Shown: positions 9,838-34,890, numbered from the stretch's first letter. The stretch is 37,409 bases of DNA from an uncultured Leptospiraceae bacterium (GCA_964591055.1 CAZPZJ010000007.1:1-37409), one strand, 5' to 3'. Program-made: numbers and translations. Notes: a model not told the origin generated them from the letters alone.

Positions 9838-10722
9838 TTATACGATTTTCCGCCCGCATTGCGGGCAAAACAACGCCGATTTCGAGGTTTTGCCGCCGCA
9901 TGAATCGCAAATCATAAAAAACTCGTTTTCAACCCGTATACTTCTCCCGCACCGGCCGCAAAACGCGTCCAAAGCCGCATTCACGGTCAGGCAATACGGG
10001 CACTGGCCCGGCTTGAGGAAATTGCTGCGCGCGAGCAGGTAGTCGGTTTTCCTCAGCGCGTACAGGTACAGAACGACGACAAGCGGCAGCACCGCGAGCC
10101 CTCCGGGCGTTCCCATCTGAGTGAACGCAATGAAGTCGTACAGCGCGTGCAGCAGCGCCCCCGCGGCGACATACGGCCACATCACCGCCGCGTAAGACCT
10201 CTCCGGGTGCTCGAATTTCGCCATCGCAAGGCCGTAGCCCCATACCGCCGCGAACCCTATATGGCCCGGCACCGCCATCAGCGAGCGCGCGACAAGGGTC
10301 CCCATCCCCTCAACCAGCGAGCCCGCGAGCGAATACCCGATGTTCTCGAACACGGCGAACCCGAGTGAGACTGTCATCGCGTATATCATGCCGTCCACGG
10401 GTTCGTTGAAATCTTTCATTTTTTTCACAAGCAGCACGGTGACGGCGGCCTTGACGGCCTCCTCGTTGAAACCGACAAACGTCGCCATCCACAGCGCGGT
10501 GAGGGGCGGCATCACCGCCTCCACCGAAACGCCGGAGATGCCGCCCGCCGCGAAATTGAACGCAGAGGCGACACCACCGCTCGCCAGGCCGCCCACCAGC
10601 CCCACCCTGAGCAGCTCCTTCATGGGCTCCGGTTCAACCCGGTCGCGCTTATACAGGATGTAAAACCATACGGCCCCGGCCGCGAAGACCGCGATCAGTA
10701 TTAGCAGATTATTCATTATCAT
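9838..10722 (-). CDS. PrsW-family intramembrane metalloprotease with two C-terminal zinc ribbons
   Basis: The PrsW motifs are canonical: FNEEAVKA (EExxK), GFAVFENIGY, PGHIGFAAVWGYG and HALYDF (HxxxD). The C-terminus carries CPYCLTVNAALDAFCGRCG and CDSCGGKTSKSALFCPQCG. Confidence 0.75.
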   Translation of the reverse strand: MIMNNLLILIAVFAAGAVWFYILYKRDRVEPEPMKELLRVGLVGGLASGGVASAFNFAAGGISGVSVEAVMPPLTALWMATFVGFNEEAVKAAVTVLLVKKMKDFNEPVDGMIYAMTVSLGFAVFENIGYSLAGSLVEGMGTLVARSLMAVPGHIGFAAVWGYGLAMAKFEHPERSYAAVMWPYVAAGALLHALYDFIAFTQMGTPGGLAVLPLVVVLYLYALRKTDYLLARSNFLKPGQCPYCLTVNAALDAFCGRCGRSIRVENEFFMICDSCGGKTSKSALFCPQCGRKIV

Positions 10723-12790: not shown

Positions 12791-13378
12791 TCAGACACGC
12801 CGCCTGCACTTCAGCCGCGCAACACCGATGGCCCCCACACACGCTGCCGCCGCGACAGTGATACCAAGCCTGATGCCGGCATTGATGAGATGCCCCCTCC
12901 TGTCCTCGATCAGCTCAAGATAGCGGGATCCTTCATCAAATGTAAACTGCTCCCGCTGCGAAAGCGCGATGAGTTGATATGCATCCCGCATCTCAAAGGG
13001 GCGCACAATGGCCGTTATCTCCCGCTCCCCGGGATGGCGCCCTGCGAGCATTTCCTGCGTATAGTCCGAGGAAACGTACAGGTGGTCGCCCGCGGCGTCT
13101 ACGAAGAGAGTGAAATAGGAACGCTCCGTCAATTCCTCCCTGCCATTGCGGCCCTTCGAGGTTTTCTCCCGAACAAATCCGACATCGGGCATAAATCTCC
13201 CTCGCACCCGCACCATGCGTGATTCCGGCGCGCCACCGTCGTGGACATCCCCGATGCATACAGGAACCGGTTCTGGAAAGAGCAGGCACTTCAGTGGCTC
13301 GCTCCCTCCGCACCAGAGGATGAGCGCCGCGAGGGCGAGCAACGCAACACCAGTAATGTGTTCAATCAATGCATTCAT
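12791..13378 (-). CDS. Hypothetical protein with N- and C-terminal TM anchors
   Basis: I chose the start at MNALIEHITGVALLALAALILW (ATG 13378). The upstream 146 codons of the track ORF are Arg/Pro-rich and cross a terminator hairpin. A C-terminal TM is present (GIRLGITVAAAACVGAIGV). I recognise no family; the bitopic layout resembles GIDE-like proteins, but only vaguely. Confidence 0.5.
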   Translation of the reverse strand: MNALIEHITGVALLALAALILWCGGSEPLKCLLFPEPVPVCIGDVHDGGAPESRMVRVRGRFMPDVGFVREKTSKGRNGREELTERSYFTLFVDAAGDHLYVSSDYTQEMLAGRHPGEREITAIVRPFEMRDAYQLIALSQREQFTFDEGSRYLELIEDRRGHLINAGIRLGITVAAAACVGAIGVARLKCRRRV

Positions 13379-13519
13379 AACGATAAGCTCTCTTCGCGCG
13401 CGCCACATGGCCCATGCGCATGACCGCATCCCGCGCGGGCACACGGCGTACAACCGGGCGAGATTCAGATATACAGACGGGCGAAGGCGCGTTTTTTCAA
13501 CAATTTTCAGGAACATCGT

Positions 13520-13562
13520 AAAAAAAAGGCCGCCGCCCGGAAGGCTTGCCTTCGGCGGGCGC
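13520..13562 (-). terminator. Intrinsic-terminator-like hairpin + T8 on the minus strand, inside a divergent intergenic region
   Basis: The minus strand reads GCCCGCCGAAGGC-AA-GCCTTCCGGGCGGC, then GGCC, then TTTTTTTT. No minus-strand CDS lies upstream of it. Confidence 0.5.
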
Positions 13563-13726
13563 AGCGGGGCGAGTGGAAACCCGCGTGTGCGCGCCATACC
13601 ACGGGTTTCAAAGCGGTATGCGCACAAAGGGCTTGACATGCGCCGCGTTGCGATGCATACAGGGTGTACGCTGGTACCTTTGGGAATGGCGATCAGTTCC
13701 GGGCAGGGATGGCGAAGGGGGGAGAG

Positions 13727-14506
13727 ATGAAACAAAACGCGTTGCTGGCCCCGGTGTTGCTGTTCACGCTCGCAATGGGCGCGTGCGACGGTGGCGGCAC
13801 TGAGGCCGTCCTGCATGCAGCGATGCCGGAGGTTAGGTTAATGAATGTTAATAATGTTTTAAGTGCCTATGGTATGACTCAGGGTTTTGTTAGAGGTTCT
13901 CCAATTATAAGAAATATACCTTTTTCTAGAATGGTTGAGTTTGGCCCTATAGAAAATAATCCATCTATTGATACCCCTGAAGAATTTATCACTGCAGCGT
14001 TTTATTCGCCGATAGAAGTATCTGCCAGTGCACGGGCGGCGATAAATAGGGAATTGCCGCAGGGTAGAGAAGGGGCGTTGAGACTGGGAGCGATGTGGCT
14101 GAAGAAGAGTGCGGAAATGCCGCAAAATGCCGGGGCTTATCAGAGAGCGTTAAGTATGATTATGCAGCGGTCAGGCGTATCGGAGAGGGAAATCCGGGAA
14201 TATTATGTTAGAATAATGACAGATACTATTAATGCTGCTGGTCAGAGATATTTAGGCAGATATTACACAAGGGAACAGTTGGTGAACACAATTTGCCGTC
14301 CTTTAGTGGAATATTATAGTAATCCAACAACAAGTAATTATAATACATTGGTTCAAACAGGCGGTTCATTAGGTAGAGAAAGAGATAATAGAATGGTACA
14401 TTTTTTGGCAATGATAAGATTATTAGATCCTATTTATGAATTTAGACACAGGGTTACAGAAGATATTTTTAGTTACGGTCGCCAGGTTGCAGGTTCTGCC
14501 CGTTAG
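13727..14506 (+). CDS. Lipoprotein of unknown function, compositionally mosaic
   Basis: The protein starts MKQNALLAPVLLFTLAMGAC (lipobox LAMGAC), with GGGGGAGAG upstream of the ATG. GC content drops sharply after about 13833 inside the same reading frame. I recognise no family. Confidence 0.65.
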   Translation: MKQNALLAPVLLFTLAMGACDGGGTEAVLHAAMPEVRLMNVNNVLSAYGMTQGFVRGSPIIRNIPFSRMVEFGPIENNPSIDTPEEFITAAFYSPIEVSASARAAINRELPQGREGALRLGAMWLKKSAEMPQNAGAYQRALSMIMQRSGVSEREIREYYVRIMTDTINAAGQRYLGRYYTREQLVNTICRPLVEYYSNPTTSNYNTLVQTGGSLGRERDNRMVHFLAMIRLLDPIYEFRHRVTEDIFSYGRQVAGSAR

Positions 14507-14527
14507 AAGTTAAAAAATATTAAATAA

Positions 14528-14568
14528 AAAGAAGGCTGTCCAAAAGACAGCTTTCTTTATTTATTTTT
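14528..14568 (+). terminator. Rho-independent terminator of the lipoprotein gene
   Basis: AAAGAAGGCTGTC-CAAAA-GACAGCTTTCTTT forms a 13-bp stem with one G-U pair, followed by ATTTATTTTT. It lies 22 nt after the stop at 14506. Confidence 0.7.
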
Positions 14569-14599
14569 CAGTCACTTTGGACGTGGTTTTCCCTGGGAT

Positions 14600-14794
14600 T
14601 ATTATAGTAATCCAACAACAAACAATTATACTACATTGGTTCAAACAGGTGGGTCTTTAGGCAGAGGCAACACAGCTATAATGGCGCGTTTTTTGGCAAT
14701 AGTTAGATCATTAAATCCGGTTTATGAATTTCGGCGCAGGGTTTCAGAAGATGTTTCTAGATATAACTTACAGGTCGCAGGTTCTGTCCGGTAG
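14600..14794 (+). pseudogene. Orphan, promoterless copy of the last 64 codons of the upstream lipoprotein gene (silent cassette or gene remnant)
   Basis: The 195 nt align without gaps to 14312..14506. By my hand count about 150/195 are identical. Both copies end in TAG. The translations are YYSNPTTNNYTTLVQTGGSLGRGNTAIMARFLAIVRSLNPVYEFRRRVSEDVSRYNLQVAGSVR versus YYSNPTTSNYNTLVQTGGSLGRERDNRMVHFLAMIRLLDPIYEFRHRVTEDIFSYGRQVAGSAR. The frame is open back only to a TAA at 14525 and contains no ATG. Confidence 0.6.
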
Positions 14795-14805
14795 AAAGGG
14801 TTGCG

Positions 14806-14843
14806 CCCCCGAAGGCGCGAAAACGCTTTCGCGCCTTCGGGGG
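14806..14843. repeat. Palindromic REP-like element, copy A
   Basis: CCCCCGAAGGCGCGAAA-ACGC-TTTCGCGCCTTCGGGGG forms a 17-bp perfect stem. The 30-nt core at 14810..14839 is the exact reverse complement of 24663..24692. Confidence 0.6.
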
Positions 14844-15042
14844 ATGATCATGACCGTCGCCTGGCATGCCTCCGGAAAGGATCGCGCCTGCGCGCCGGGG
14901 CGTTGATAACGGGTAACGATAATGCCGATACTGCTTAGGACGTGGTTTCCACCTCCTAACCCGGGAAAAGAGGGACGGAGGGCGGAAAAACACCTGTCCC
15001 TTTCGCCCCCTCCGGGGGTCGGGGGGATCAGGGCGCAGCGCC

Positions 15043-20093: not shown

Positions 20094-20122
20094 TTGACAT
20101 CATAATAAGTGATGTATATGAT
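20094..20122 (+). promoter_or_regulatory. Near-consensus sigma70 promoter upstream of the FliM-like gene
   Basis: TTGACA (20094..20099), a 17-nt spacer, then TATGAT (20117..20122). This implies a leader of about 135 nt before ATG 20263. Confidence 0.5.
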
Positions 20123-20262
20123 TCTTGCAACAAACTATTTTTCACAGCCAGCAAATTATTGCTAAAAAAAATACGGAGTCACCGTCTATTCAGGAGAGCG
20201 GCCATGCGGGACAGCCCGGCGAAGCCGCTGTGTTGAATACCAACGGAACCCAGGAGGAGTTC

Positions 20263-21180
20263 ATGACGGATATACTCTCAAAGGAGGAGATCGAAGCCCT
20301 TCTCAACGCGATTGCCACGGGCAATTTCGATACGACACATCATTACTATGGAAAAGAGCAGCGAAAAGTCACGCACTACGATTTCCGCCGTCCTGAAAAG
20401 TATACTGAGGCCCACCTGCAGGCACTCCGGAGGGTGCACAAGGACTTCGCGGCGCAAGCCATGCGCGTCCTCTCGGGCCAGCTTGGCGTTCGCGCCGACG
20501 TTCAGATCGATGGGGTGCACCAGCTTACCTATGAAGAGTTCTTACGCACCCTGCCTAATCCCACGGCCCTGGGCATCATCGCAATGGATCCCCTGGGCGA
20601 ATACGCGGCGCTGGAGATAGACCCTGCGCTCGCGTGTGCGATGATTGATTTACTGTGCGGCGGGACAGGGGACTATTGTACAACTCCGCGCGCTCTGACC
20701 GACGTGGGGCTCTCGATCATGGAATTTATCTTTGTCCGCCTGCTGGGAGAGCTGCGGCAATCATGGTCGGGCATCATCGACCTGCTCCCGCGGCTGATGA
20801 ACATCGAGCCCGATCCGCGAAACGCGCGGCTCACAAACCCCGATGAAATGATTGTTTCTATCGCCTTCTCCACAAAGGTTGGCCCGGTCGAGGGGGTCAT
20901 CAATCTCTGCCTGCTCGAAAAAGCCTGCGGCCTCCATAAAACCGTTGACACGGCAAGCCGCAGCGGAGCGCCTCCGGCGGGAAAGGGAATCCTCGCTGAC
21001 GCGATTGAAAAGACCGTGTACTCCCTGTACCGCGTCTATCCGCTTCGCGCTCCGGCAGGATATCCTTCGTGGTCAATCCCGGCCACAAAGGGCCTTAAAA
21101 TCGCCGTCGACCCGAACGTGCGGGATACCACGGAATATGAGCAACACAAAACCTGTCAGGGAGGCGGCCATGAACAGTGA
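20263..21180 (+). CDS. fliM: FliM-like flagellar switch (C-ring) protein
   Basis: AGGAGG lies 5 nt upstream of ATG 20263. The N-terminus MTDILSKEEIEALLNAI matches the LSxxEIDALL-type CheY-P-binding peptide. The core reads YDFRRPEKYTEAHLQALRRVHKDFA..VHQLTYEEFLRTLPNPTALGIIAMDPLGEYAALEIDPALACAMIDLLCGG and ..GVINLCLLEKACGL, which is close to the FliM consensus. The C-terminal 80 aa or so are divergent, and by eye I cannot decide whether a SpoA fold is present. Confidence 0.8.
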   Translation: MTDILSKEEIEALLNAIATGNFDTTHHYYGKEQRKVTHYDFRRPEKYTEAHLQALRRVHKDFAAQAMRVLSGQLGVRADVQIDGVHQLTYEEFLRTLPNPTALGIIAMDPLGEYAALEIDPALACAMIDLLCGGTGDYCTTPRALTDVGLSIMEFIFVRLLGELRQSWSGIIDLLPRLMNIEPDPRNARLTNPDEMIVSIAFSTKVGPVEGVINLCLLEKACGLHKTVDTASRSGAPPAGKGILADAIEKTVYSLYRVYPLRAPAGYPSWSIPATKGLKIAVDPNVRDTTEYEQHKTCQGGGHEQ

Positions 21181-24172
21181 AGAGCGCGAAATAGCAAATA
21201 CGCTTGACGGACTTGACAGCCTTGAGTCCCCACCCCATCGCGAACGCACCGAAAGCCGACGCGAGGACGGGACGGCAGCGGCGGTGCGGCCGGAAGACTG
21301 CGAAAGGATCACGCGCTCGCTTCTCGAGTGCGCATCCGAGCTGAAAACGGACTTCAATCGAGAAACAGCGATTACGCCCCGGGCGCCCTTTCACGGCACG
21401 GCAGGACAACTGCGCGAAACAATGCCGGCTGACTTCATTCGCGTTGCGGTGGCGTGTAATCCGGCCGACCGCAACGGCGCGCTCGCCGGAATCGCCATCG
21501 GGAGGGGGCAGGCCGTCGAAATCGCAACGCTGATTGACGGAGCTCCTCCCGCTGATGACGAACGCATGTCCGAAACAATCCGGGATTTCGCGTTCACCCT
21601 TGTCAATCGGGCGCTTCCGCTTCTCCTCGGATCGCCGACTCCCCCGCCCGCGATCGGCCCTGTTCAGGAAAACATTGACCACACGGTCGAGATTATTATC
21701 GCCCCGTGCGAAATCCGTTTCGACGCCGCGGGGACCCTGCCCTTTTTCTTTTTCATCGAGCCGTCCCTGCTTCAAGACAACGGCGGCTTGGCGACATTCG
21801 ACCAGGACAGCATTAACGCGATTCCGTACGCCCATAACGAACCGACCGGCGCCGGCGCGCAACCGCTCCCTGCGCCCGCGCCGTCCCGGCCGCAACGCCC
21901 GGCGTCCGTACACCTTCGCGTGTTCGACATGGTGCGCGCCGGAGGGGTCACCTCGACGTGGAAGGCGCGCAGGGCCGCCCGGAAACTGCTCTCCTCCCTG
22001 ACCGGCGATGAGAAGCGCGCGCTCACGGGCGTCGCCGATGTCCCCCAAGCCGGACGGCCGGCCCTCGACGCGCTCCTTTGCATGATAAAGGAGGAAATCG
22101 CACGACATAAAAAGGGGATTATCAACATGGAATTCCTCGTGCCGGAACTCGCGCAGCTTCCCGAGCTCCCCCTGCCGCTTGCCGTCCGCTTTGACGGCGG
22201 CGCCTTCAGGCCCGGCGAAACGCCCTCCATCGCCGACGCGTCGCACCAGCCCATCGAGCGCTATCTCGGCTGCCGGGGAGAGCTGCTGTTCGCCGGAAAA
22301 ACGATCGCGCATGCGACGCTCAGGCGCTCCGAACGCGAGGGGCTGCACCTTGAAATCGACACTCAGCCCGCGCCGCGCACGGGCGCAGAAATCGCCGCCA
22401 TCGCCCTTGACCACATGGCGCCGCTTTCCGTTGAAATCGGCCGCGTCGTTCTTGACGCCGGGGAAGCGGCCTCGCTCCGGGAAGGCTCCGTCATCGCCTT
22501 CAACCGCCTGGCGGGCGAACCTCTTTCCGTGATGTATGGGGCAAGCGATATCACGCTGTTCAGCGGCGAGATTGTAACAATTGAAAATGATTACGGCTCA
22601 AAGAATTTCGCCGTGCGGGTGACGGACGTCGCGCGCAGGATGGACAACCCGAAAGTCCTTCCCATGTTTACAAAGCGGCCCCGAACGCCCGGCGCCCCGT
22701 CGCTTACCGCCCGCTTTCTGCTGGGAACGACGTCAGTTCCGTTGAAAGACCTCATCTGCTTCGGCGAAGGCTCCCTCATCGAGCTCGACAGGAAGATTGA
22801 CGAGCCGGCATGGCTGGAGTTCAGCGACGGCTCGATAGTGAGCGTTGAAACCATAATACAAGATGAATTGTTTGCCGCGAGGATCACAAGCGGGCAATCG
22901 GGCGCAACGGCGGAAACATGCGCCGCCGCGTCGGATGAATGTTTCCTGCCCGAGGAGGAAAGCCCGGAGGGAAATCCCGGCCCCGCCATTGAGGACATGC
23001 CGGCAGGCGGAGCGGAAGACACGTTCGCGCCGGACGCTTTCGACGAGTTCCACGCGCTCATTGAAACCATGCGACAGTCCATTGAACGGGACGATTCCGG
23101 ACGCGACATTGAACGCGAGCTCAACGAGCTCATTGACGTCGACCCCGGAAAAACGGCCCGTGCGCTCGCCCGATGGATTGAAAGCGAACCCCAGCGCGCC
23201 GCGGCGTTTCTCGTCGCGACTGGAGACGAGCGCGCGGCGAAGCTTGTCAGCCTGACTCCCGACGAATTGCTCGGGACAATCACGTTTGAGCTCAGCCGCG
23301 CCGGGGACGTCCTTCCCTCGAGGAAACGGGAACTCGTCGTCGAGGCGCTCGCACGGATACACGCGCTCGACGCCGTTTCATCCGGCGGCGTCGACTACGC
23401 CCGAAAAGTGCTCGAACGGGCCGTGGGCGAGCAGAGGGCCATCGATATCGTCAACCGGCTTACCGCGTCGCTGGTGGCGCTCCCGTTTGACTTCATTCGG
23501 CGCGCCGACCCGGAACAGCTTCGCAACATCATCTGCGACGAACACCCGCAGGTGATCGCGCTCGTCCTGGCGCACCTGGACCCGTCCATGAGCGCGCAGA
23601 TCCTTTCCGGGCTCAGCCACCAGATCCAGGCGATCGTGGCGATGCGCATCGCCATTATGGGCCGCACCTCTCCCGGCGTGATTCGCGAAGTGGAGCGAGT
23701 GCTGGAGCGCAGGCTCTCCACGCTGGACGGCGGGGATTTCATGACGGCGGGCGGCATCGACGCCCTGGTGGAAGTGCTCACCAACGTGGACCGCGGAACC
23801 GAGAAGATGATCATCGAGGCGCTCGAAGAGGAGGAACAGGAGCTCGCCGAGGAGATCAAGAAGCGGATGTTCGTGTTCGAGGACATCGTGCTACTGGACG
23901 ACCTCTCCATCCAGAAGGTGCTCCGGGAGGTCGACACCCGGGACCTGGCCAGGGCGCTCAAGTGGGCGGACGCGGAAGCGCAGGAGAAATTTTTCCGCAA
24001 CATGTCGGAGCGCGCCTCCTCGCTGCTGCGCGCGGACATAAACTTCATGGGCCCCACAGTCCTGCGCGACGTCGAGGAGGCTCAGCAGAAGATTGTGAAC
24101 ATTATCAGGAAACTTGAGGAAGCCGGCGATATCATCATCGCCCGCGCCGGCGACAATGAGCTTGTCGTCTGA
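21170..24172 (+). CDS. fliG: 1000-aa fusion: N-terminal (CheC/FliM-middle-like?) region + three SpoA/FliN-type domains + acidic linker + full-length FliG
   Basis: I placed the start at ATG 21170 (AGGGAGG 6 nt upstream); it overlaps the fliM-like stop (ATGAACAGTGA). SpoA-type blocks lie at 22172..22360 (degenerate), 22424..22630 (LSVEIGRVVLDAGEAASLREGSVIAFNRLAGEPLSVMYG..FAVRVTDV) and 22703..22888 (LTARFLLGTTSVPLKDLICFGEGSLIELDRKIDEPAWLEF..FAARIT). FliG spans 23141..24169 (EHPQVIALVLAHL, MFVFEDIVLLDD, SIQKVLREVDTRDLARALK, NMSERASSLLRADINFMGP, DVEEAQQKIVNIIRKLEEAGDIIIA). The track start at 20852 adds an Arg-rich out-of-context extension. Confidence 0.85.
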   Translation: MNSEEREIANTLDGLDSLESPPHRERTESRREDGTAAAVRPEDCERITRSLLECASELKTDFNRETAITPRAPFHGTAGQLRETMPADFIRVAVACNPADRNGALAGIAIGRGQAVEIATLIDGAPPADDERMSETIRDFAFTLVNRALPLLLGSPTPPPAIGPVQENIDHTVEIIIAPCEIRFDAAGTLPFFFFIEPSLLQDNGGLATFDQDSINAIPYAHNEPTGAGAQPLPAPAPSRPQRPASVHLRVFDMVRAGGVTSTWKARRAARKLLSSLTGDEKRALTGVADVPQAGRPALDALLCMIKEEIARHKKGIINMEFLVPELAQLPELPLPLAVRFDGGAFRPGETPSIADASHQPIERYLGCRGELLFAGKTIAHATLRRSEREGLHLEIDTQPAPRTGAEIAAIALDHMAPLSVEIGRVVLDAGEAASLREGSVIAFNRLAGEPLSVMYGASDITLFSGEIVTIENDYGSKNFAVRVTDVARRMDNPKVLPMFTKRPRTPGAPSLTARFLLGTTSVPLKDLICFGEGSLIELDRKIDEPAWLEFSDGSIVSVETIIQDELFAARITSGQSGATAETCAAASDECFLPEEESPEGNPGPAIEDMPAGGAEDTFAPDAFDEFHALIETMRQSIERDDSGRDIERELNELIDVDPGKTARALARWIESEPQRAAAFLVATGDERAAKLVSLTPDELLGTITFELSRAGDVLPSRKRELVVEALARIHALDAVSSGGVDYARKVLERAVGEQRAIDIVNRLTASLVALPFDFIRRADPEQLRNIICDEHPQVIALVLAHLDPSMSAQILSGLSHQIQAIVAMRIAIMGRTSPGVIREVERVLERRLSTLDGGDFMTAGGIDALVEVLTNVDRGTEKMIIEALEEEEQELAEEIKKRMFVFEDIVLLDDLSIQKVLREVDTRDLARALKWADAEAQEKFFRNMSERASSLLRADINFMGPTVLRDVEEAQQKIVNIIRKLEEAGDIIIARAGDNELVV

Positions 24173-24234
24173 GCCCGTATTCAAATCGTGACGGACTATC
24201 ATCCGAATAAACACCTAATCAGGGATGTCACACT

Positions 24235-24633
24235 ATGTTCAACAGTAAGTTCATCGGTAAATGGGCCTGGGAATCACAGGACGCCCAGAAGCGCTCCATT
24301 GAATTCTCCGACGACCACGGCCGACTGGCGTACAGGATTACCGACAACGGGATTAATGCCTGGACCCCCAAAGCCCTGGAGGTTGAAAAAGTAGACGGCG
24401 GTTGTTTCTTTACCAACAACTGGATGGGCGAGAACGGCGACGCGATGTTTCTGTACGAGGTCAGGGACCGCACCGGAGAAGCCGAAAACGTCAACACGTT
24501 CATCAACGTCCAGGAATGGAGAATCATTTCCGATACTTCTTTGAACCAGGTGAACAGGGGATTTACATTCGACAGGAAGGAAAACGCATGGAAGGAGTTC
24601 CGTGAGGAGCTGCTCCTGCGGAAATTGAGCTGA
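24235..24633 (+). CDS. Small hypothetical protein (132 aa), possibly co-transcribed with the FliG fusion
   Basis: This clean ORF starts 62 nt after the fusion gene. It is Trp-rich and looks beta-rich (FIGKWAWESQD..RLAYRITDNG..FLYEVRD..WRIISD). I recognise no family, and the RBS is weak. Confidence 0.5.
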   Translation: MFNSKFIGKWAWESQDAQKRSIEFSDDHGRLAYRITDNGINAWTPKALEVEKVDGGCFFTNNWMGENGDAMFLYEVRDRTGEAENVNTFINVQEWRIISDTSLNQVNRGFTFDRKENAWKEFREELLLRKLS

Positions 24634-26720: not shown

Positions 26721-26976
26721 CTGTTAAAACCCTCATCAAGCCGCATGGTCACTCCCGTGTACGCGCTCAAATCATCATCGGCGGTCAGTGGCCGCCAACT
26801 TCCTCTTGTTAAGCGGACGACGTTACGTGATTTTTTTAAAGAAAAAAAAGGCCCCTCCGAAAAAAGTTGATTTTATGGCGTGATGGTTTAAGAAAATGAA
26901 AAAATCGTTAAATTTTTCCGGCAAGCTCATCCATTACAACGATGAACGACATAATTCCACCATGCCACGAGGTAGT

Positions 26977-28668
26977 ATGAACATCGACATTCTCTCTTCC
27001 GCCACGCAGGAAATCTTCATTAAAAACCTGTTTTCGGTGCTTTCGGCCGACAGGGGTACGCGCCTTTTTGGAAGGGCCAGCATCGCGCACACGGTCAAGG
27101 AGCTCGCCCTGGGCAGGGACACGCTGCAGGAGTGGTTCACCGCGTGGAAGGAAAGCCCCGGCGAGATACATTCCCTTCATGACAGCGCGCAGGACCGCGA
27201 CATGGTGCTGCTGGTCTGCTCGGCCCTGCTGAACGACGAGACCACGCACAGCGAAATCATGAGCTCGCTGTGCGAGTACGCCTCGGCCCACGGCATCAGC
27301 GCCCGCACCGTCAACACCATCTTCGCCAACAAGCTCGAGCTGGTCGGCGAGCCCTCGCTCGTCAGGCGCGCGGCGAGGATCAAGATGACGTACCTTGGCA
27401 ACGGGGATCCTTCACGGCAGGCCGTGACGCGGAAGAAGATCGCCGGCGGGGAGCAAAGCTTCTTCATCGCCAACCAGGTGACCGACGAGGGCTTTGACGA
27501 GCTGCAGCGCCTCCTCATGGCCTACTACCTGGACGTGCACGCCGCCATCGACGGCCCTCCCGGCGTGGGGAAGACGCACAGCGTGATGGAGATCGCGAAG
27601 GTCCTCGGACTGAGCCTCTATACCAAGACCTGCTCCAACCGCACCACGGAGTCGCACATCATCTCCTACCCGGTGCTGGGCGCGCAGGACGGCGTGAGCG
27701 TCACCAGGCACGTCAACGGGCCGCTCATCTGCGCCATGACCGAGCCCGGCATCTTCTACGGCGACGAGTTCAACCTGCTCAAGGAGGACGTGCAGAAGCG
27801 CATGAACAGCGCCTTCGACGAGCGGCGCTCAATCGACCGCAGCGACGGCGTGCAGATGAACGCAAAAAAGGGGTTCTGGGGCGTCATCTCCTACAACCCC
27901 ACGCAGAACTTCACCTCGCGCGACCTGGAGGACTCGGTGGCCGACCGCTTCATCCACCTCCACTACGAGCGCTGGCCCTCGGATTTCAAGGCCTACGTGG
28001 CGCACCGCAAGGCCGTGGGAGAGAAGGCCGCCGGTGGATTTTCCGATTTCGGGATATCCCTTTCGTTGCGGGGAGTGTCGGCCGACGGGCGCTTTTTCAG
28101 GGGAGTGCCGGAAAACAACTCGATCGCCTGGCGCAACTTCTTCAACGACGAGAAGGCGGCGAAGGCGCCGGAGTACGTCTACCAGGTACACGACGCCAAA
28201 CAGACGTTCGGGTACGGCAAGGACTCAGCGAAAGTGCTCTCGGAGCTGGAGCGCAACGCGTACTCGGGCGTCACGTTCGCCAGGATGCTTTCAAGCTTCA
28301 CCGACCTCCTCAACTCGCTGGGGCGCACCGGCAAATCGCCGATGCTGAAAAAAATCGGCCTGGGCGACACGCTGGAAAACGAGGACCTGGAGCTTCTCAC
28401 CCTGCACGAAAGCTCGGCGCGCATCGAGATGGCGGCGCTACGCCATTACCACTACCTTCTGGAACGGGGCTTCAACCGCTTCCTCGCCCAGACCTATGCG
28501 ACGCGCCTGGTGATCGACCAGGTCTGCTACGGCCAGTACCGCGACAAGATGCTCCGGACCAACTCGGTCTACCAGCTGGTGATGATGATCGCCAAGAGCA
28601 TGCATTTGTTCGGCGACGTCACCAGGTACAACACCAACCTCGCTTCGGCGGCGGCCGCGAAGAAATAG
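26977..28668 (+). CDS. MoxR/AAA_5-type AAA+ ATPase with N- and C-terminal extensions
   Basis: Walker A is AIDGPPGVGKTHSV (27553 onward) and Walker B is GIFYGDEFNLL. The sensor region is FWGVISYNPT. I prefer the start at ATG 26977 (GAGGT upstream); the track start at 26896 has no RBS. It lies 12 nt upstream of the vWA gene. Confidence 0.85.
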   Translation: MNIDILSSATQEIFIKNLFSVLSADRGTRLFGRASIAHTVKELALGRDTLQEWFTAWKESPGEIHSLHDSAQDRDMVLLVCSALLNDETTHSEIMSSLCEYASAHGISARTVNTIFANKLELVGEPSLVRRAARIKMTYLGNGDPSRQAVTRKKIAGGEQSFFIANQVTDEGFDELQRLLMAYYLDVHAAIDGPPGVGKTHSVMEIAKVLGLSLYTKTCSNRTTESHIISYPVLGAQDGVSVTRHVNGPLICAMTEPGIFYGDEFNLLKEDVQKRMNSAFDERRSIDRSDGVQMNAKKGFWGVISYNPTQNFTSRDLEDSVADRFIHLHYERWPSDFKAYVAHRKAVGEKAAGGFSDFGISLSLRGVSADGRFFRGVPENNSIAWRNFFNDEKAAKAPEYVYQVHDAKQTFGYGKDSAKVLSELERNAYSGVTFARMLSSFTDLLNSLGRTGKSPMLKKIGLGDTLENEDLELLTLHESSARIEMAALRHYHYLLERGFNRFLAQTYATRLVIDQVCYGQYRDKMLRTNSVYQLVMMIAKSMHLFGDVTRYNTNLASAAAAKK

Positions 28669-28680
28669 CGGCGGGCAACC

Positions 28681-31600
28681 ATGGACAAAAAAAAGTTCAG
28701 ATCGCTGCTGTCCGCGCAGGCCAGGCGGGAAATCAAAAAGCGGATCGTCGACGCCCGTCACATCGACACGGCGTACTCCCTGGGCGCGGATTTTTTCGAC
28801 GACACGCAGGTCGGTCTCTTCGAACGCTTCGTGGAACATCCCGGCTTTGAAAAGTTCATGGAAACGCGGACCGCCTCGTCGATCTCCCGTTTCGAGCACA
28901 CGCTGTCAACGCTCTTGAGGCGCATCGCGCTCGGCATCGCGCCTGAAACCATCGCTGCGATCGCGGGCGAGATGTCGGGCAAGGCCTACCGTGCCGTAGA
29001 ACGGTCATTTTTCATGGTGCCGGTGGACCGCGAATCGTTCGAGGCGTTCGAGCGCCACTTCATCGCCATCGGCGAACAGCGGCAGGACCTGACGGCCCCC
29101 TTTGTCGAGTTCTGCGCCTCCACCGAATTCAGCACGCTGCGGCAGCAATTCGCGCCCGAGCGGCCGCTCTTCAACGAGATGTTCGCCCGGCTGGCCTCGC
29201 TGCTCCTCGCAGTGAAAGATCCCGACTCGGTCAAAGCCGCCGCCGCTCTCCTCACCGCCCCCCACTCGGTGCGCCTCATCCACCTGAGCTACGACATCGG
29301 GCGCTGGGAGGAGTTTGTACTGAACCTGTTCAACATCATAGCCCGGGGGCCCGACGCGGCGCGCTTTTTCAGGCTGCTCAAGCTCTTTTCGATGCGCTAT
29401 CCGGCCGTGAAGCACCAGTCGCTCGAAAAAAAGGAAAAGGAGCACACGCGGCTCTACAGGCGGCTTGCCGGAATATGGAACTGCCTCATCATCATGCCGC
29501 CGGACCGCGTTGACGATTACCGCGCGTTTTTAAAGGATTACGGCAGCCCGCGCGACGAATTTGAAAACTTCGTGTGGGAGCTCGTGTTCAGCCTTGAGCC
29601 GGAAAAGAGCCTGAAGGCGATCAGCATTTTCGTGTCCACCGCGTTTTCCTCGCTGCGCGGCTACTACGGCTTCACGACCGAGGTGGTCAGGTTCCTGATC
29701 CGCAACATTGTCTCGGTCATTTCCGAGATGGACATCCGCGACATCTCTATTTCGCTCTACCGCATCGTGCTCAAGCTGCTGCTGGGGCTCAAGGTGGACA
29801 AAAATTTCCTTGACAGGCGCGCGGCCTTCTTCATGTGGATGAAGGAGCAGACATCCTCGACGCTGGTTGAGCTCGAGGTGATACGATTCCTGCTGTTCGA
29901 GTACATCTTCATCGCGCTCAAGCTTGTCGACAACGGTCAGCGCATGAAGATGACGCGCTTCTGCGATCCCAACCACGCGGCGTTCTGCCATCATATCGAT
30001 GAGCTTTTCGGTGACATGCGATACATGCGCAACCGCTCGAAACTTGAGGTGTTTGCGCCGGTGCTCGCCATGATTCGCGCCGGCCTCTGGAAGCCCCTGT
30101 TTGAAAAATTCTCCCGTCAATCATTGCTCCTCGAAACGATCATCAGCGTCGCCGAGAGCATGGACATCGAGGACGCCGTGCTCAAAGCGCTCGCGGACAC
30201 CGAGCCCGAACACCTGGAGCGCTACTGCGAAACGCTGATGGACACGTTCAGGCAGGACCCTACAAGGACGCGCGAAGCCGCCGCGCCCGACTACTGGCAC
30301 CGCGTCACGCTCGTCGATGCGATGCCGTACGTGAAGGGCGTGGTGATGCCGCTCATCGGCGGGGTGCCGATCCTCGACGGCGGCCTGTACGCCAAAACCA
30401 ACGGAAGGGAGATATACCTTCCTTCACACATCAATTTCTTCAAGGATCCGCTCGACCCGCTCACGGAAAACAGAAATCTCACCGCCTACATCTTCTGCGC
30501 CCTCCACGAGGCGGGACACATTATCGCGGGGTCGTTCCGCTTCGACATGAAGTTCTACGCGTCAAACCTGGAGCTCCCCGACCTCTTCTTCCACATCTAC
30601 AACACTTTCGAGGACTTCCGCATCGAAAGCTACATGATCAGGATCGGCGCCCACCCGCAAGCGGGCGAACTCACGTTCTTCATGAACAGCTATTTCTCGA
30701 ACAGCTTCATGAACATGGAGCTCGGCGCCGCCGTGCGCACGCTCACGCACATCGTGGACGAGGCCGTGGGCTACAACAAGGACATACGCGAAACCCCGCA
30801 GTACATGGAGCTCATCGACAGCATCATGAACGCGAAACTTTCCACGGGGCGGTTCAGGGGCATGCGCGAGATGATCGACTACGGCGTGCAGCGGCTGCAG
30901 AACCTGGACTGCGCCAACCCGCTCGCCGTGTACCCGCTGGTGCGCGAGTTCTACGAGATCATGAAGCACTGGCACGAGGCGGACCTTGCCGGCATCCTTG
31001 ACCCGGAGTGCTCGGCAAAGCCGCTGCACGATTATGACGCTGCGTCATGTCCGGAAGGCCCCCTCTCGCGCGAGGAGCTTGACGCCCTCTACCGCGCGTA
31101 CAACGAAGACCCGCTGGGGTTCCTGCACCAGTACGGCCTGGAAGCGCCCGGCGACCTCGATCCCCGCGGCAGTGAACAACGGGGCGCCGCCTCCAACGCG
31201 CAGATCGATTCGTTCGCCACCGGCATGCTGGGGGTGGAATCGCCGGACTACTCCCTTACCGGCACCATGGACTATTCGCACCGCACCCGCGCCGACGATG
31301 AAGCGGCGAAGGTGCAGACCGGTGAAATAAAAATCAAGGGTAAAACGGGAAAGCCGCCCGAGAAGAAAAAATCGCCGGAAAAAACAGGGGAGAAAAAGAA
31401 GAACAAGGGTGGGAAGAAGAAGTACGTCTACTCCATCGATCCGCGCACGCGCTCTCGCACGCGCCTGTCCGAGATCAACGAATACCCTGTGCGGGACAGA
31501 AACGCCGAGTTCTTCCACAAGTTCAGGCAGTGGGAGTACCTGGCCCAGAAGGTCTATGACCGCCTCTCGGTGCTGCTGCCCATCGTCCGTGAGGAGGAGG

Positions 31601-32292
31601 ACACCTCTTCGTTTGAGGGCGAGCTCAACATCGAAACACTCATCGAGGTGCTGAGCGACCGAAACCGCCTCCACTCCGCCGAGTTCCTCGACATCTACCG
31701 GGAGAAGCGCAGGACGCTCGAGGTGATCATCGGGCTGGACGCGAGCGGCTCCACCGGGGCATTCATTTCCGGCGCGCCGCCGACGCCGCACGCCGCCGCC
31801 ACCGAGGTGCTTGACGTTGAAAAGGCGTTCGCGATCATCCTGGGCACGGCGCTGTGCCATCTGACCGAGCGCGTCAGCTCGTACGCGTTCAACTCGCTCA
31901 CCTCCACCAACGTCTACCGCGCCGAGACCATCGACGCGGTCTCGTCCTTCACCGCGCTCAACGGCAACAGGGACGGCGACTTCATCCGCTACATCAACAA
32001 CATCATGGAGAAGAGCGACGCCGAGGTGAAGTACTTCTTCCTGCTGAGCGACGGCATGCCGGCGTCCGACAACTACATGGGCAAAGAGGCGCTTGACGAC
32101 ACGCTGATCGCCATGCGCGAGACGGTGAATTCCGGCGTCAAGCTCATCTACTTCAACGTGGACTCCGAGCGCCGGGAATACTTTGACGCATTCAAGAAGG
32201 AGGCCACGTACGCCGAGCACTTCAGCAGCCCTGAGCAGATACTTCCCGCCATCCCGGAGCTGGTGGCCAAGATCGTGGATTCAATCAAGTGA
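28681..32292 (+). CDS. 1203-aa protein: about 600-aa helical N-terminal region + HExxH metallopeptidase-like domain + polybasic linker + C-terminal vWA domain
   Basis: HEAGH lies at 30505..30519 (FCALHEAGHIIAGSF, then FEDFRIESY). The vWA MIDAS motif is LEVIIGLDASGSTG (D at 31738), with later FFLLSDGMPASDNY. A Lys-rich stretch spans 31321..31425. The layout resembles the metallopeptidase+vWA partners of MoxR ATPases. Confidence 0.8.
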   Translation: MDKKKFRSLLSAQARREIKKRIVDARHIDTAYSLGADFFDDTQVGLFERFVEHPGFEKFMETRTASSISRFEHTLSTLLRRIALGIAPETIAAIAGEMSGKAYRAVERSFFMVPVDRESFEAFERHFIAIGEQRQDLTAPFVEFCASTEFSTLRQQFAPERPLFNEMFARLASLLLAVKDPDSVKAAAALLTAPHSVRLIHLSYDIGRWEEFVLNLFNIIARGPDAARFFRLLKLFSMRYPAVKHQSLEKKEKEHTRLYRRLAGIWNCLIIMPPDRVDDYRAFLKDYGSPRDEFENFVWELVFSLEPEKSLKAISIFVSTAFSSLRGYYGFTTEVVRFLIRNIVSVISEMDIRDISISLYRIVLKLLLGLKVDKNFLDRRAAFFMWMKEQTSSTLVELEVIRFLLFEYIFIALKLVDNGQRMKMTRFCDPNHAAFCHHIDELFGDMRYMRNRSKLEVFAPVLAMIRAGLWKPLFEKFSRQSLLLETIISVAESMDIEDAVLKALADTEPEHLERYCETLMDTFRQDPTRTREAAAPDYWHRVTLVDAMPYVKGVVMPLIGGVPILDGGLYAKTNGREIYLPSHINFFKDPLDPLTENRNLTAYIFCALHEAGHIIAGSFRFDMKFYASNLELPDLFFHIYNTFEDFRIESYMIRIGAHPQAGELTFFMNSYFSNSFMNMELGAAVRTLTHIVDEAVGYNKDIRETPQYMELIDSIMNAKLSTGRFRGMREMIDYGVQRLQNLDCANPLAVYPLVREFYEIMKHWHEADLAGILDPECSAKPLHDYDAASCPEGPLSREELDALYRAYNEDPLGFLHQYGLEAPGDLDPRGSEQRGAASNAQIDSFATGMLGVESPDYSLTGTMDYSHRTRADDEAAKVQTGEIKIKGKTGKPPEKKKSPEKTGEKKKNKGGKKKYVYSIDPRTRSRTRLSEINEYPVRDRNAEFFHKFRQWEYLAQKVYDRLSVLLPIVREEEDTSSFEGELNIETLIEVLSDRNRLHSAEFLDIYREKRRTLEVIIGLDASGSTGAFISGAPPTPHAAATEVLDVEKAFAIILGTALCHLTERVSSYAFNSLTSTNVYRAETIDAVSSFTALNGNRDGDFIRYINNIMEKSDAEVKYFFLLSDGMPASDNYMGKEALDDTLIAMRETVNSGVKLIYFNVDSERREYFDAFKKEATYAEHFSSPEQILPAIPELVAKIVDSIK

Positions 32293-32346
32293 GGTGCGCG
32301 GCGGTTGCGTCTACCAATATTAAGGGCATATTTTCCCCAACTTGAG

Positions 32347-32372
32347 TAATAGAGAGAAAGGACTCTCTATTA
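32347..32372. terminator. Hairpin between convergent genes at the GC-content boundary
   Basis: TAATAGAGAG-AAAGGA-CTCTCTATTA forms a perfect 10-bp stem. It overlaps the ankyrin gene's stop codon (32370..32372). Confidence 0.45.
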
Positions 32373-32969
32373 TTCCTGCCCCCCAGCATCCCTTAAAAAC
32401 TTCGTCATTTCTTCAATCTTGGCTAACTTATCAGGATCAGGCGGGCCATATGTAAAAATACGTTTTATCATAACAAGATTGCCGAGTGCAGTTTTGCCCA
32501 GATTGTTTCTTATATTTAGATTTGCTTTTTTCGATATAAGAAACTTCATCGGCTCGTTGTTTAATGATAAAGTTGAGTACATAAGAGGTGTGCTTCCATC
32601 CAAATCTACAGCATTAATATTGGCTTTTAATTGAATTAACATCTTCATCGCCTCAATACACCCACTCTGTGTTGCAATATGTAAAGGCGTCCCCCCCTTT
32701 TCTTCCTTAGCGTTAACATTAGCCCTTTTACTTAATAAATACTTTACAGCCTCAAGATTACAGTGATTACATGCCCATAATAAAGCCATTCCACCTGATT
32801 TTTTAATACTGGCCCCGGATTTTACCGCTTTTTTAATCCCTTCAAAGTCATTTTCTTTTGCTGCGTTAATTAAATTATCGTCAGATGGATTACTGTACAA
32901 ATTAACACAAGTAAAGGCAATACAGGCAAAAAGGGTGACCGCACCGATTATCGAAGAATGAGTTCTCAT
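32370..32969 (-). CDS. Ankyrin-repeat secreted protein (low-GC)
   Basis: The signal peptide is MRTHSSIIGAVTLFACIAFTC. The ankyrin repeats include GGMALLWACNHCNLEAVKYLLSKRANVNA, GGTPLHIATQSGCIEAMKMLIQLKANINA and GSTPLMYSTL. Confidence 0.85.
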   Translation of the reverse strand: MRTHSSIIGAVTLFACIAFTCVNLYSNPSDDNLINAAKENDFEGIKKAVKSGASIKKSGGMALLWACNHCNLEAVKYLLSKRANVNAKEEKGGTPLHIATQSGCIEAMKMLIQLKANINAVDLDGSTPLMYSTLSLNNEPMKFLISKKANLNIRNNLGKTALGNLVMIKRIFTYGPPDPDKLAKIEEMTKFLRDAGGQE

Positions 32970-33095
32970 TCCTTATCCCCCCGATATTTATTTGAATAAA
33001 ACAATACTAAATACAATATAAAATATATGCTTTACATATCAATTACTTTTATTAATTTTTACAGTATATAATAATAAAAACAAAGGATTTACTTT

Positions 33096-34382
33096 ATGAT
33101 ACGATCAACGGCACATAGCATAGTATTTATTTTCATAATATTTACATTCAATTGTCAAACATCCCACGAAGTAAGAGTTGACACAGTATCAACAAAAGAA
33201 AACACCCGTAAGAGTGGATGCATTTCGGGTAATTGCCTGAATGGATATGGAGTATATGTATCAGATAACGGGGGCCGTTATGAAGGACAATGGAACAACG
33301 GTCTTTTCGATGGGAAAGGGATCCTATTTTTCCCTGATGTAACAGGCACCTATAAAGGTGAATTCAAGAAAGGCTCACGTGAAGGCAATGGTATTAATAC
33401 ATTTCAAAATGGTGACCACTATGAGGGCAGTTTTTTCGCCAATATGCCAAACGGGAAAGGTGTCTTTATTTATGCCGATGGGACAATAGAGCGCGGAGTT
33501 TTTTCAAATGGGCTTTTTTGCGGTACAATAATGTTACCTGTTCTTCATGAAAATGTAAAGAAGAAGATTGGTATAATCAGATCAATTAATCCAGTATCCA
33601 AAGAGATTTTAGTACAGGTATATCAAACCGAGGGGGAAAAGATCCTCGCCATGGGGCAAAAAGTGTTTTTAGAATTACACAATGTTATGGCACCAATGGA
33701 AGTAACTTTTCCAATGATGGCATCAGCGAAGTGTAAAATGATTGGCCAAACATCTCCCTGGATTACTGATGTACGACCGAATATGCCCGTATATGAGATG
33801 ATAAAGGGAATGAAGCGAGGAGACGGAACTTTTTTATTTCCTAACGGGAATTCATATGCAGGCGAGCATAGAGGGAATCTTATGCATGGGAGTGGAATAT
33901 TCCGCTGGTCTAATGGAACTGTTTACACAGGGGAATATGCAAATGGAATGCGAAACGGAAAGGGGAAATTGTCATATTACCATGGTGACGTTTTTGAAGG
34001 AAACTGGAAGAATGGGATGATGCATGGAAAAGGAGAGTTGAAATTCAATAATGGCGACAGGTATGTAGGCAACTTTTTTCATGGCAGGCGGACAGGGAAA
34101 GGGAAATTCTACCATTTTAACGGCGGTACTTATGAGGGTGATTTTAAAAACGAAAACTTTGAGGGGAAAGGAATTCAGTGTTTTCCAGATGGCAACCGCT
34201 ATGATGGAGAGTTTATTAATAATAAATTTAACGGCAAAGGCACATACTATTTTAATGATCAGGCAACTTATTTTGCGGGAGAGTTTTCTCATGGCAAGCC
34301 GAATGGTGTTGGAAAAATATTCAAGAATGGAATAATAATTAAAGAAGGCCGTTGGGTATATGGAAACTATGTCGGTGAATAA
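33096..34382 (+). CDS. MORN-repeat secreted protein with a central non-MORN insert
   Basis: An N-terminal hydrophobic signal is followed by a CISGNCLNGYG motif. At least 12 MORN units are present (YEGQWNNGLFDGKG, YKGEFKKGSREGNG, YEGSFFANMPNGKG, YTGEYANGMRNGKG, FEGNWKNGMMHGKG, YVGNFFHGRRTGKG, YEGDFKNENFEGKG, YDGEFINNKFNGKG ...). They are split by an insert of about 80 aa (33567..33800). Confidence 0.9.
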   Translation: MIRSTAHSIVFIFIIFTFNCQTSHEVRVDTVSTKENTRKSGCISGNCLNGYGVYVSDNGGRYEGQWNNGLFDGKGILFFPDVTGTYKGEFKKGSREGNGINTFQNGDHYEGSFFANMPNGKGVFIYADGTIERGVFSNGLFCGTIMLPVLHENVKKKIGIIRSINPVSKEILVQVYQTEGEKILAMGQKVFLELHNVMAPMEVTFPMMASAKCKMIGQTSPWITDVRPNMPVYEMIKGMKRGDGTFLFPNGNSYAGEHRGNLMHGSGIFRWSNGTVYTGEYANGMRNGKGKLSYYHGDVFEGNWKNGMMHGKGELKFNNGDRYVGNFFHGRRTGKGKFYHFNGGTYEGDFKNENFEGKGIQCFPDGNRYDGEFINNKFNGKGTYYFNDQATYFAGEFSHGKPNGVGKIFKNGIIIKEGRWVYGNYVGE

Positions 34383-34548
34383 TAAATCGCAATAACAGGC
34401 AATTTAACCAGTAAACACTGACAATCATGTCGTCTCGGGACATAAAGCATTGACAAATGCTTTCCGTAATAGTTCATTTTACACTATATTTGTCTATTTA
34501 TCGTTAACTTACCTTCAAGATATATATAATCGCACAATATTATGGAAG

Positions 34549-34890
34549 CTAATTGGCGTTAAAAGGCGTAAACCACATCGGCTGCGGATGATTCTCCGGC
34601 TTTATCGGCTTTTCAAGCCTTTGAGGATTTGCCAGGCGCCATTCATATGAGCCGGGATATCCTTTTTCCTCATTGCATCCGATTATCTCAACCGTACCGA
34701 TGACGACTCCCGATGGCAGATCTCCCGGCTTCAGGCCGATATCTTCAAACTCCTCGATGTCCGCCGGTGTAAGGCTTGCGTAAATGTAAACTCGCGCACG
34801 CACCTTCGTGGGCTTGCTCCGGTACTCGATCTTCTTACCTCCGCGCATAATAAGCTCGGCCCATGGTTGTCGGACAGAGAGCGCTTTCAT
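34549..34890 (-). CDS. ASCH-domain protein
   Basis: MKALSVRQPWAELIMRGGKKIEYRSKPTKVRARVYIYAS is the typical ASCH N-terminal signature. I placed the start at ATG 34890 (GAGGT 8 nt upstream) rather than the track start at 34959. Confidence 0.75.
   Translation of the reverse strand: MKALSVRQPWAELIMRGGKKIEYRSKPTKVRARVYIYASLTPADIEEFEDIGLKPGDLPSGVVIGTVEIIGCNEEKGYPGSYEWRLANPQRLEKPIKPENHPQPMWFTPFNAN

Follow-up and report, generated by a model that had tools for sequence, protein, structure and literature searches.

A FliM paralogue overlapping a SpoA3-FliG fusion gene: a candidate accessory C-ring protomer of spirochaete-like bacteria

Two overlapping genes on the + strand of a 37,409-nucleotide stretch of DNA from an uncultured bacterium (GCA_964591055.1, CAZPZJ010000007.1:1-37409; 'the window' hereafter means this whole stretch) encode relatives of the proteins of the flagellar C-ring, the rotor and switch of the motor. 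The first gene (20263..21180, +) specifies a FliM paralogue of 305 amino acids (aa), and the second (21170..24172, +) a fusion protein of 1000 aa in which an N-terminal domain, three SpoA domains and a linker lead into FliG. A first-pass annotation, made from the sequence alone, had described the second gene as a single stop-free open reading frame (ORF) whose start overlaps the end of the first gene by 11 nucleotides (nt), and both descriptions hold. The fusion reading frame is uninterrupted, and the overlap (ATGAACAGTGA, 21170..21180, +) contains the TGA of the first gene (21178-21180) lying over the ATG of the second (21170); because of this arrangement, we consider the two genes to be translationally coupled, as had been proposed. 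GGAGG-type ribosome-binding sites precede the starts of both genes. An internal ribosome-binding site with an ATG was looked for before the SpoA and FliG parts of the fusion gene and none was found, and a separately translated FliG or SpoA fragment is therefore not indicated.

The product of the first gene carries the three parts expected of a modified FliM: an N-terminal peptide, a middle domain and a half-SpoA tail. Its N-terminus reads MTDILSKEEIEALL, and by alignment the start MTDILSKEEIEALLNA falls opposite MTEILSQDEIDALL of canonical FliM, such that the CheY-P-binding-type peptide (LSQxEIDALL type) read in the first-pass annotation as LSKEEIEALL is present. The middle domain, of CheC fold, contains CGGTGD, which is the GGXG motif (here GGTG) that contacts FliG_M. 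That the protein had been called a near-consensus FliM is half borne out: its identity as a FliM is supported by Pfam (1.2e-43 over aa 39-217), but near-consensus it is not, as its TIGR01397 score of 177.5 lies below the cutoff (219.6), the match reaching model positions 1-214 of 320, and as the protein ends in a short SpoA and has suffered an 8-aa deletion. The tail (20914..21177, +; aa 218-305) is best described as a truncated SpoA remnant without the last strands. It tracks the first half of the canonical FliM SpoA and ends ~35-40 aa early (VYSLYRVYPL...IPATKGLKIAVDP in the paralogue opposite VELPIVVEVG...LAIQAGDVIKLPN in canonical FliM), and it is kept across the family. In the Pfam scan the paralogue gave no FliMN_C match, the full C-terminal SpoA being absent and the equivalog cutoff missed, and hhalign of the tail against SpoA profiles gave a weak match of 19 columns (probability 35%); the truncated-SpoA reading is accordingly drawn from the direct alignment to canonical FliM rather than from hhalign. 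Over its N-terminal and middle domains the paralogue is ~51-52% identical to the canonical 340-aa FliM of Spirochaetota metagenome-assembled genomes (MAGs). Across the family such paralogues share 28-52% identity with each other and 43-70% with canonical FliM, against 80-86% among canonical spirochaete FliMs, a pattern that marks them as fast-evolving paralogues. The alignments thus point to a fast-evolving paralogue of a spirochaete C-ring gene, extra to the canonical set.

The N-terminal region of the fusion protein (21170..22159, +; aa 1-330), which aligns with the N-regions of the relatives P0005 and P0007, has no recognisable fold. Neither it nor the two homologous N-domains matched Pfam at E <= 10, a profile search of the PDB gave no match for aa 1-330, hhalign gave none against a profile of the canonical FliM middle domain, and an AlphaFold model from the three-sequence alignment had a predicted local distance difference test (pLDDT) score of 38, on which Foldseek returned RNase H/integrase noise. 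The suggestion that this region might be CheC-like is unsupported by all of these searches, which neither show nor exclude it. The N-regions of P0005 and P0007 begin MSDGxLxQ(D/E)EI(D/N)xxLxG, a peptide of the CheY-binding type found on FliM and FliY, and have in common a DEKR-containing helix before SpoA1.

Three SpoA domains follow, as the first-pass annotation had it, two of them detected by Pfam and PDB sequence searches and the first by hhalign and by AlphaFold with Foldseek. SpoA-like domain 1 (22178..22363, +; aa ~337-398) is divergent and below Pfam detection; hhalign aligns it in register with SpoA2 over 55 columns (probability 85%, E 5.6e-6), and in the AlphaFold model it forms a beta-rich unit, with pLDDT ~80-87 over most of its length, which is kept across the family. 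SpoA domain 2 (22400..22636, +; aa 411-489) is of FliN type and matches Pfam FliMN_C, TIGR02480 and Salmonella FliN (8umd_D, 2e-06), while SpoA domain 3 (22700..22900, +; aa 511-577) matches Pfam (aa 511-574), NF005275 (aa 512-573) and Helicobacter pylori FliY (5xrw_C); the two align with each other at an hhalign probability of 99%. Weak NCBIfam FliY matches also fall over the SpoA parts. The profiles used here came from an alignment of window aa 331-672 with the equivalent segments of 11 relatives (12 proteins in all), in which three conserved units are evident and both the SpoA trio and the linker can be aligned from end to end. AlphaFold on this alignment gave a mean pLDDT of 70, with 80-92 in most domain blocks, and a model comprising three beta-rich units, a disordered acidic stretch and three helices running into FliG_N. 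Among PDB entries, Foldseek matched this model best to 4yxb/4yxc (E 1e-9, template-modelling score 0.70-0.74, ~166 columns), followed by FliN chains of the Salmonella C-ring and Thermotoga maritima FliN, and the prediction is that at least two SpoA units associate within the chain as a pseudo-dimer. The linker itself (22901..23185, +; aa 578-672, ~95 aa) consists of the acidic stretch (pLDDT < 50 at model residues 247-290) and then the three predicted helices (model residues 292-341).

The C-terminal third of the fusion is a complete FliG, as had been claimed, scoring 360.2 against the TIGR00207 equivalog cutoff of 226.7 over aa 675-999 and containing, in order, FliG_N (23186..23473, +; aa 673-768; Pfam 2.8e-22), FliG_M with its EHPQ motif (23510..23728, +; aa 781-853; Pfam 4.6e-29) and FliG_C with MFVFEDI and an altered torque helix, SERASSLLRADINFMGPTVLRD (23816..24139, +; aa 883-990; Pfam 1.6e-43). 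Profile searches thus recover both SpoA and FliG, the finding on which the proposed anatomy had beforehand been made to depend. The EHPQ(R) motif reads CDEHPQVIALVL and the MFVFEDI segment KRMFVFEDIVLLDD, and alignment of the M and C domains with FliG of T. maritima (1lkv) gave E 1.7e-77. In this alignment the torque helix reads LRADINFMGPTVL against LKDELEYMGPVRL in T. maritima; specifically, at ERASSLLRADINFMGPTVL opposite KRAAALLKDELEYMGPVRL, the first Arg is retained together with one acidic residue, in agreement with the earlier remark that the acidic pair is half retained. The MotA-facing charges of this helix correspond to K264, R281, D288, D289 and R297 of Escherichia coli FliG. Across the family the acidic pair is retained in 15 of 19 fusion proteins and the Arg in many members, EHPQ is present in nearly all fusions and MFVFEDI is conserved; among these proteins the window copy is divergent, and its torque-helix charges are weakened.

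Mean identities of the fusions to canonical FliGs are 24.9% for FliG_N, 39.5% for FliG_M and 44.3% for FliG_C, compared with 31.8%, 39.8% and 46.2% among canonical FliGs themselves, figures that are biased, as the canonical comparison set was picked by similarity to the query. To judge by these alignments, the conservation of FliG_M and FliG_C is on a par with that in ordinary FliGs, with FliG_N, the FliM paralogue and the N-domain of the fusion evolving fast. The FliG_C of the window is ~50% identical to canonical FliGs, of which the closest, in searches biased by exact peptide patterns, are non-spirochaetal: one from a Firmicute-type codY-flgB operon (52%) and others from Fibrobacterota (45-47%). 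In a neighbour-joining tree of the M and C domains the fusion FliGs lie mostly outside the main canonical cluster; this tree is not relied on, because its topology is star-like.

The same architecture recurs in other bacteria, a point that the first-pass annotation had left to a homologue search. Homologues were found by an exhaustive HMMER search of 1.8 billion representatives; word-index searches returned itself alone for the whole fusion and ordinary FliN proteins alone for the SpoA-trio alignment, and a single-protein peptide-pattern scan of genomes returned one fusion locus (L007) together with ordinary FliGs of Fibrobacterota and others. Exact look-ups of the two window proteins gave hits on this contig alone. 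The SpoA-SpoA-SpoA-linker-FliG layout is found, for example, in P0003, P0004, P0005, P0007, P0013, P0020, P0021 and P0025, and the FliM paralogue is paired with a SpoA3-FliG gene on at least seven independent contigs, mostly from spirochaete-like uncultured bacteria. In every locus with upstream DNA visible, the FliM paralogue lies directly 5' of the fusion gene: L001 (NCBI GCA_964419435.1; paralogue 306 aa, fusion 979 aa), L004 (302 and 679 aa), L006 (paralogue ORF cut 5' at the contig end, fusion 932 aa), L046 and L047 (300 and 737 aa; L048 is cut upstream), L049 (306 and 713 aa) and L007 from Spirochaetaceae bacterium UBA1306 (286 and 657 aa). The genes of these relatives overlap by 4-8 nt, except in L007, where they are separated by an 8-nt gap, and in P0043 and P0083 the two are fully fused into one-chain FliM-SpoA3-FliG proteins. 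On this comparative sequence evidence, the gene pair is a real, conserved two-gene operon.

Related combinations of C-ring domains surround this core family. Three proteins (P0008, P0032, P0065) are FliM-FliG fusions without the SpoA trio, P0010 (996 aa) joins FliM to six DUF4116 repeats, FliG_M and two FliG_C stretches, P0047 (817 aa) is a natural FliF-FliG fusion (YscJ/FliF with a full FliG), and in P0098 (1699 aa) a segment of FliG M/C type lies close to the C-terminus (residues ~1300-1535). A metagenome contig (Ga0268262_10000909; L073, 7185-9877) carries an unfused fliM and fliG pair, 9 nt apart, with no other flagellar gene within 18 kb. Its FliM (438 aa) has a complete SpoA and a ~100-aa insert and its FliG (455 aa) a ~125-aa N-terminal extension, and this unfused pair may resemble the ancestor of the fused module.

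In the Salmonella C-ring, a FliM_C:3FliN_C assembly forms a basal spiral under each FliG-FliM (PMC11087270). The gene pair of the window encodes one FliG, the N-terminal and middle domains of one FliM, three complete SpoA domains and one half SpoA. In domain content, then, it is one Salmonella C-ring protomer (1 FliG : 1 FliM : 3 FliN), with the ratio fixed by fusion and coupled translation; the correspondence with protomer stoichiometry drawn in the first-pass annotation agrees with these domain counts, and recurrence of the architecture backs the anatomy. Like the Salmonella C-ring (PDB 8umd, 8umx, 9n49; PMC11087270), the module has all domain types and both EHPQ and GGXG motifs, and the SpoA units of the fusion are predicted to pair as FliM_C:FliN. 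Unlike it, the module has its three FliN-type domains and FliG in one polypeptide, a FliM without the SpoA end, an extra 330-aa N-domain, partly lost torque charges in the window copy and genes that lie away from fliF and the flagellar genes. It departs likewise from ordinary FliG, a stand-alone protein of ~330-345 aa encoded after fliF, in that FliG is here the end of a 1000-aa chain.

We consider with moderate confidence that the module is an accessory, paralogous C-ring rotor or switch protomer that exists beside a canonical fliG/fliM/fliN set encoded elsewhere in the genome. The first-pass annotation had offered two alternatives, a strongly re-wired switch complex or a C-ring-derived module co-opted for a non-flagellar role; neither is singled out by the evidence, which favours this intermediate third reading. 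We prefer it because FliG_M and FliG_C are conserved as in working FliGs and because Borrelia also has a second FliG. In such a unit, EHPQ and GGXG would mediate binding of FliG_M to the FliM paralogue's middle domain, two SpoA domains would pair intramolecularly as a pseudo-dimer, and the divergent SpoA1 might have the paralogue's truncated SpoA tail as its partner. The ~95-aa linker, with ~45 disordered residues and three helices, would reach roughly 150-200 Å and could thereby span the distance from the C-ring's base to FliG_N, FliG_C would face a MotA-type stator, and a CheY-type signal would be received by the N-peptide of the FliM paralogue. The module would then act as an accessory or alternative rotor unit alongside the canonical set, analogous in principle to the second FliG of Borrelia. 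We also entertain, more tentatively, the idea that it is a distinct and self-sufficient C-ring unit, either a different rotor on a subset of motors (e.g. pole-specific) or a CheY-like-responsive non-flagellar ring with a MotA-like partner.

Several observations weigh against the accessory reading. Beyond the pair, the 37-kb contig was found to carry neither flagellar nor chemotaxis genes (fliF, motAB, export-gate or che genes), as the first-pass annotation had noted for 15 kb on either side, and none of these adjoins the module in most of the other loci. The canonical set elsewhere and the flagellation of the host are thus assumed, the genomic scope here being that contig, and assignment of the host to the spirochaetes is based on the similarity of one gene and on one related MAG. 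We regard the host as probably spirochaete-like, given the similarity of the FliM paralogue, the UBA1306 locus and a repertoire of ankyrin, MORN, WG-repeat and FGE-sulfatase proteins. Features in the sequences of the module itself also count against it: the N-peptide of the window fusion is degenerate (MNSEEREIANTLDG); the FliM paralogue has its 8-aa deletion at the conserved NLC(I/L)PYxxxEP, directly after NLCL; and in the torque helix of the window an E-to-A change (leaving an Ala-Asp pair) is followed by replacement of the next conserved Arg by Val. In addition, the FliG_N of the fusions diverges beyond that of canonical FliGs, on the biased figures given above, and four relatives (P0028, P0072, P0106, P0149) are SpoA3-FliG_MC proteins without FliG_N, for which FliF docking is therefore not possible.

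Alternatively, the module may have been co-opted altogether, as a self-contained cytoplasmic scaffold or ring that is CheY-like-responsive but no longer docks on FliF or drives a flagellum. This we think possible but less likely. In every case the module lies apart from flagellar genes, and its neighbourhoods vary, with TPR/CHAT, GGDEF and WD40 proteins, PrsW, ADP-ribosylglycohydrolase, FGE-sulfatase and ankyrin proteins or FHA and Ser/Thr kinase proteins; the FliM paralogue and FliG_N evolve fast, FliG_N is missing from some relatives, DUF4116 repeats intervene between FliM and FliG_MC in P0010, and half of the torque-helix charges are lost in the window copy. However, FliG_M and FliG_C (including EHPQ and MFVFEDI) are conserved as in working FliGs and most members have the stator-facing charges, which would be hard to explain without a MotA-like partner, and FliG_N is kept in most members. 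In spirochaetes, moreover, flagellar genes are dispersed over several loci. A second FliG in Borrelia, fliG1, affects swimming (PMC7225975).

The pair might also have replaced separate fliG, fliM and fliN genes within an ordinary scattered flagellar regulon and so constitute the sole switch complex of its host. All three C-ring functions are encoded in the correct stoichiometry, the FliG-FliM contact motifs are retained, and our evidence covers the 37-kb contig. This is nevertheless improbable: the canonical 340-aa FliM is widespread and highly conserved in Spirochaetota MAGs, the FliM paralogues of the module diverge much faster, as expected of redundant copies, the degenerate features of the window copy are unlikely to be tolerated in an essential sole switch, and the module was present in one GTDB (Genome Taxonomy Database) species representative among those recovered by an insensitive peptide-pattern scan. 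Very remote, in our estimation, is the suggestion that the fusion is a product of mis-assembly or a frameshift, or that the genes are decaying into pseudogenes. The contig is represented by one assembly, some window motifs are degenerate, and high G+C content lengthens ORFs, as the long antisense ORFs attest, but the fused architecture occurs in independent NCBI, JGI, ENA and Logan assemblies, for which reason we hold it to be no assembly artefact. Further, the linker and SpoA trio align full length across 12 proteins, the 3-kb ORF is intact with a FliG_C ~50% identical to canonical FliGs, and the gene has a GGAGG ribosome-binding site at its start and no internal start. The accessory protomer remains our preferred reading.

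Around the module, expression signals and neighbouring genes can be described as follows. A candidate sigma-70-like promoter (TTGACA-17-TATGAT; 20094..20122, +), a pattern match alone with 11 of 12 consensus positions, lies ~140 nt 5' of the FliM paralogue start. The 140-nt leader between them (20123-20262) folds moderately better than shuffled controls (z = -2.2), and an Rfam scan of the window, including this leader, gave no match. Downstream, an ORF of 132 aa (24235..24633, +), without a Pfam match and without a homologue in the other module loci, is perhaps co-transcribed with the fusion gene, no terminator-like site having been found between the two. Antisense ORFs of up to 439 aa run over the fusion gene (e.g. 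21095-22414, - strand); these are most likely due to the 62-64% G+C coding sequence, and their 'homologues' in other loci are the mirror of the conserved FliG gene on the opposite strand.

Pfam confirms the neighbours listed in the first-pass annotation, a DUF805 protein, an ECF-type sigma factor, an AAA ATPase and an FGE-sulfatase protein, to which we add an AAA_5 ATPase, a GrpE-like protein, ankyrin, MORN and WG-repeat proteins and a cluster of FHA, Ser/Thr kinase, PP2C and PrsW genes. This signalling cluster (950-10722) comprises a PP2C phosphatase, an FHA protein with a trypsin-like protease, an FHA protein with a PrsW protease, two Ser/Thr kinases with zinc ribbons (one also with WG beta-repeats) and a PrsW protein with a double zinc ribbon; a PrsW protease likewise lies directly 3' of the module in L006. 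At 26896-32292 a gene for a 590-aa ATPase of the AAA_5 (MoxR/dynein-type) group is separated by 12 nt from the next, which encodes a 1203-aa protein without a Pfam match, a possible two-gene system. G+C content is 0.38-0.47 at 32001-37409 and at 14001-15000, compared with 0.55-0.64 elsewhere in the window; in the right-hand block, which may be acquired DNA, one protein has ankyrin repeats, another MORN repeats and a third a LAGLIDADG-like domain.

Across loci, no neighbours are conserved besides the FliM paralogue and fusion genes themselves. The neighbourhoods variously include FapA, TPR/CHAT, GGDEF and WD40 proteins; PrsW; ADP-ribosylglycohydrolase; and FGE-sulfatase, ankyrin and Lcl_C proteins. 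MCP-CheW and MCP genes flank the module in L007, where a PAS-LuxR gene is also near. In L001 a gene for FapA (PF03961, flagellar assembly protein A/DUF342; 12958-14136) begins 17 nt 3' of the fusion gene and is, among the loci seen, the sole flagellum-linked neighbour adjoining the module.

Individual parts of the module have counterparts in several known systems. Four of the fusions (P0005, P0007, P0021, P0025) resemble FliY of Bacillus, Thermotoga and Helicobacter in having an LxQ(D/E)EIDALL-type peptide at the start, with a variable region and then SpoA behind it; unlike FliY, the fusion has no detectable CheC-like domain in aa 1-330, three SpoA domains instead of one, an attached FliG and, in the window, a degenerate peptide. 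Its tandem SpoA domains, with their predicted intramolecular pseudo-dimer, resemble the engineered FliM(SPOA)::FliN construct (4yxb/4yxc) and SctQ (Spa33/SpaO/YscQ, with tandem SPOA1-SPOA2). In contrast to the engineered construct, the fusion is natural and has three tandem SpoA domains continued into FliG, and in contrast to SctQ, no SctQ_C-like internal translation start was found in its gene. FliF-FliG fusions, both engineered in Vibrio (PMC10941966) and natural (P0047), resemble the module in that FliG tolerates N-terminal fusion to a ring partner, and a covalent link at the FliG N-terminus can therefore be compatible with ring assembly. Finally, the gene for FliG1 (as opposed to FliG2) of Borrelia burgdorferi, a paralogue of FliG, lies outside the main flagellar operon, and this FliG1 has been proposed to confer different properties on motors (PMC7225975). 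The module is similar in providing an extra FliG outside the main flagellar operon, a likeness drawn from description. In contrast to the module, FliG1 stands alone and is not known to carry SpoA domains or to have a FliM paralogue as partner.

In the literature searched we found no description of natural FliN-FliG, FliM-FliG or FliM-FliN-FliG fusions, of SPOA-FliG, of a third FliG or of such a stand-alone pair, and the NCBIfam models that recognise the fusion are the generic ones for FliG and FliN. While its parts are all known, the fusion architecture and the stand-alone two-gene unit thus appear to be new. Annotation pipelines would call the fusion protein just 'FliG'. The family represents a hidden diversity of rotor proteins outside flagellar loci, including SpoA3-FliG, FliM-SpoA3-FliG, FliM-FliG and FliG_N-less forms, carried by spirochaete-like and termite-gut-type bacteria. 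The 1:1:3 composition of the C-ring was only recently settled by cryo-electron microscopy of Salmonella motors, and the module offers independent evidence for this protomer; it also indicates that a tether of ~95 residues can join FliN at the bottom of the ring to FliG at the top, and the fusion could be used as a construct for structural and assembly studies. If the module is indeed a distinct and self-sufficient unit, the natural FliM-FliN3-FliG chains would be the first 'one-polypeptide C-ring protomers'. The motors at the two ends of a spirochaete cell have to be driven differently, and Borrelia already uses a second FliG. A second complete switch unit is therefore a concrete candidate for motor specialisation in these bacteria, or for a new non-flagellar use of rotor parts, and, should it prove to be a distinct unit, it would bear on how spirochaetes run their two polar sets of motors asymmetrically.

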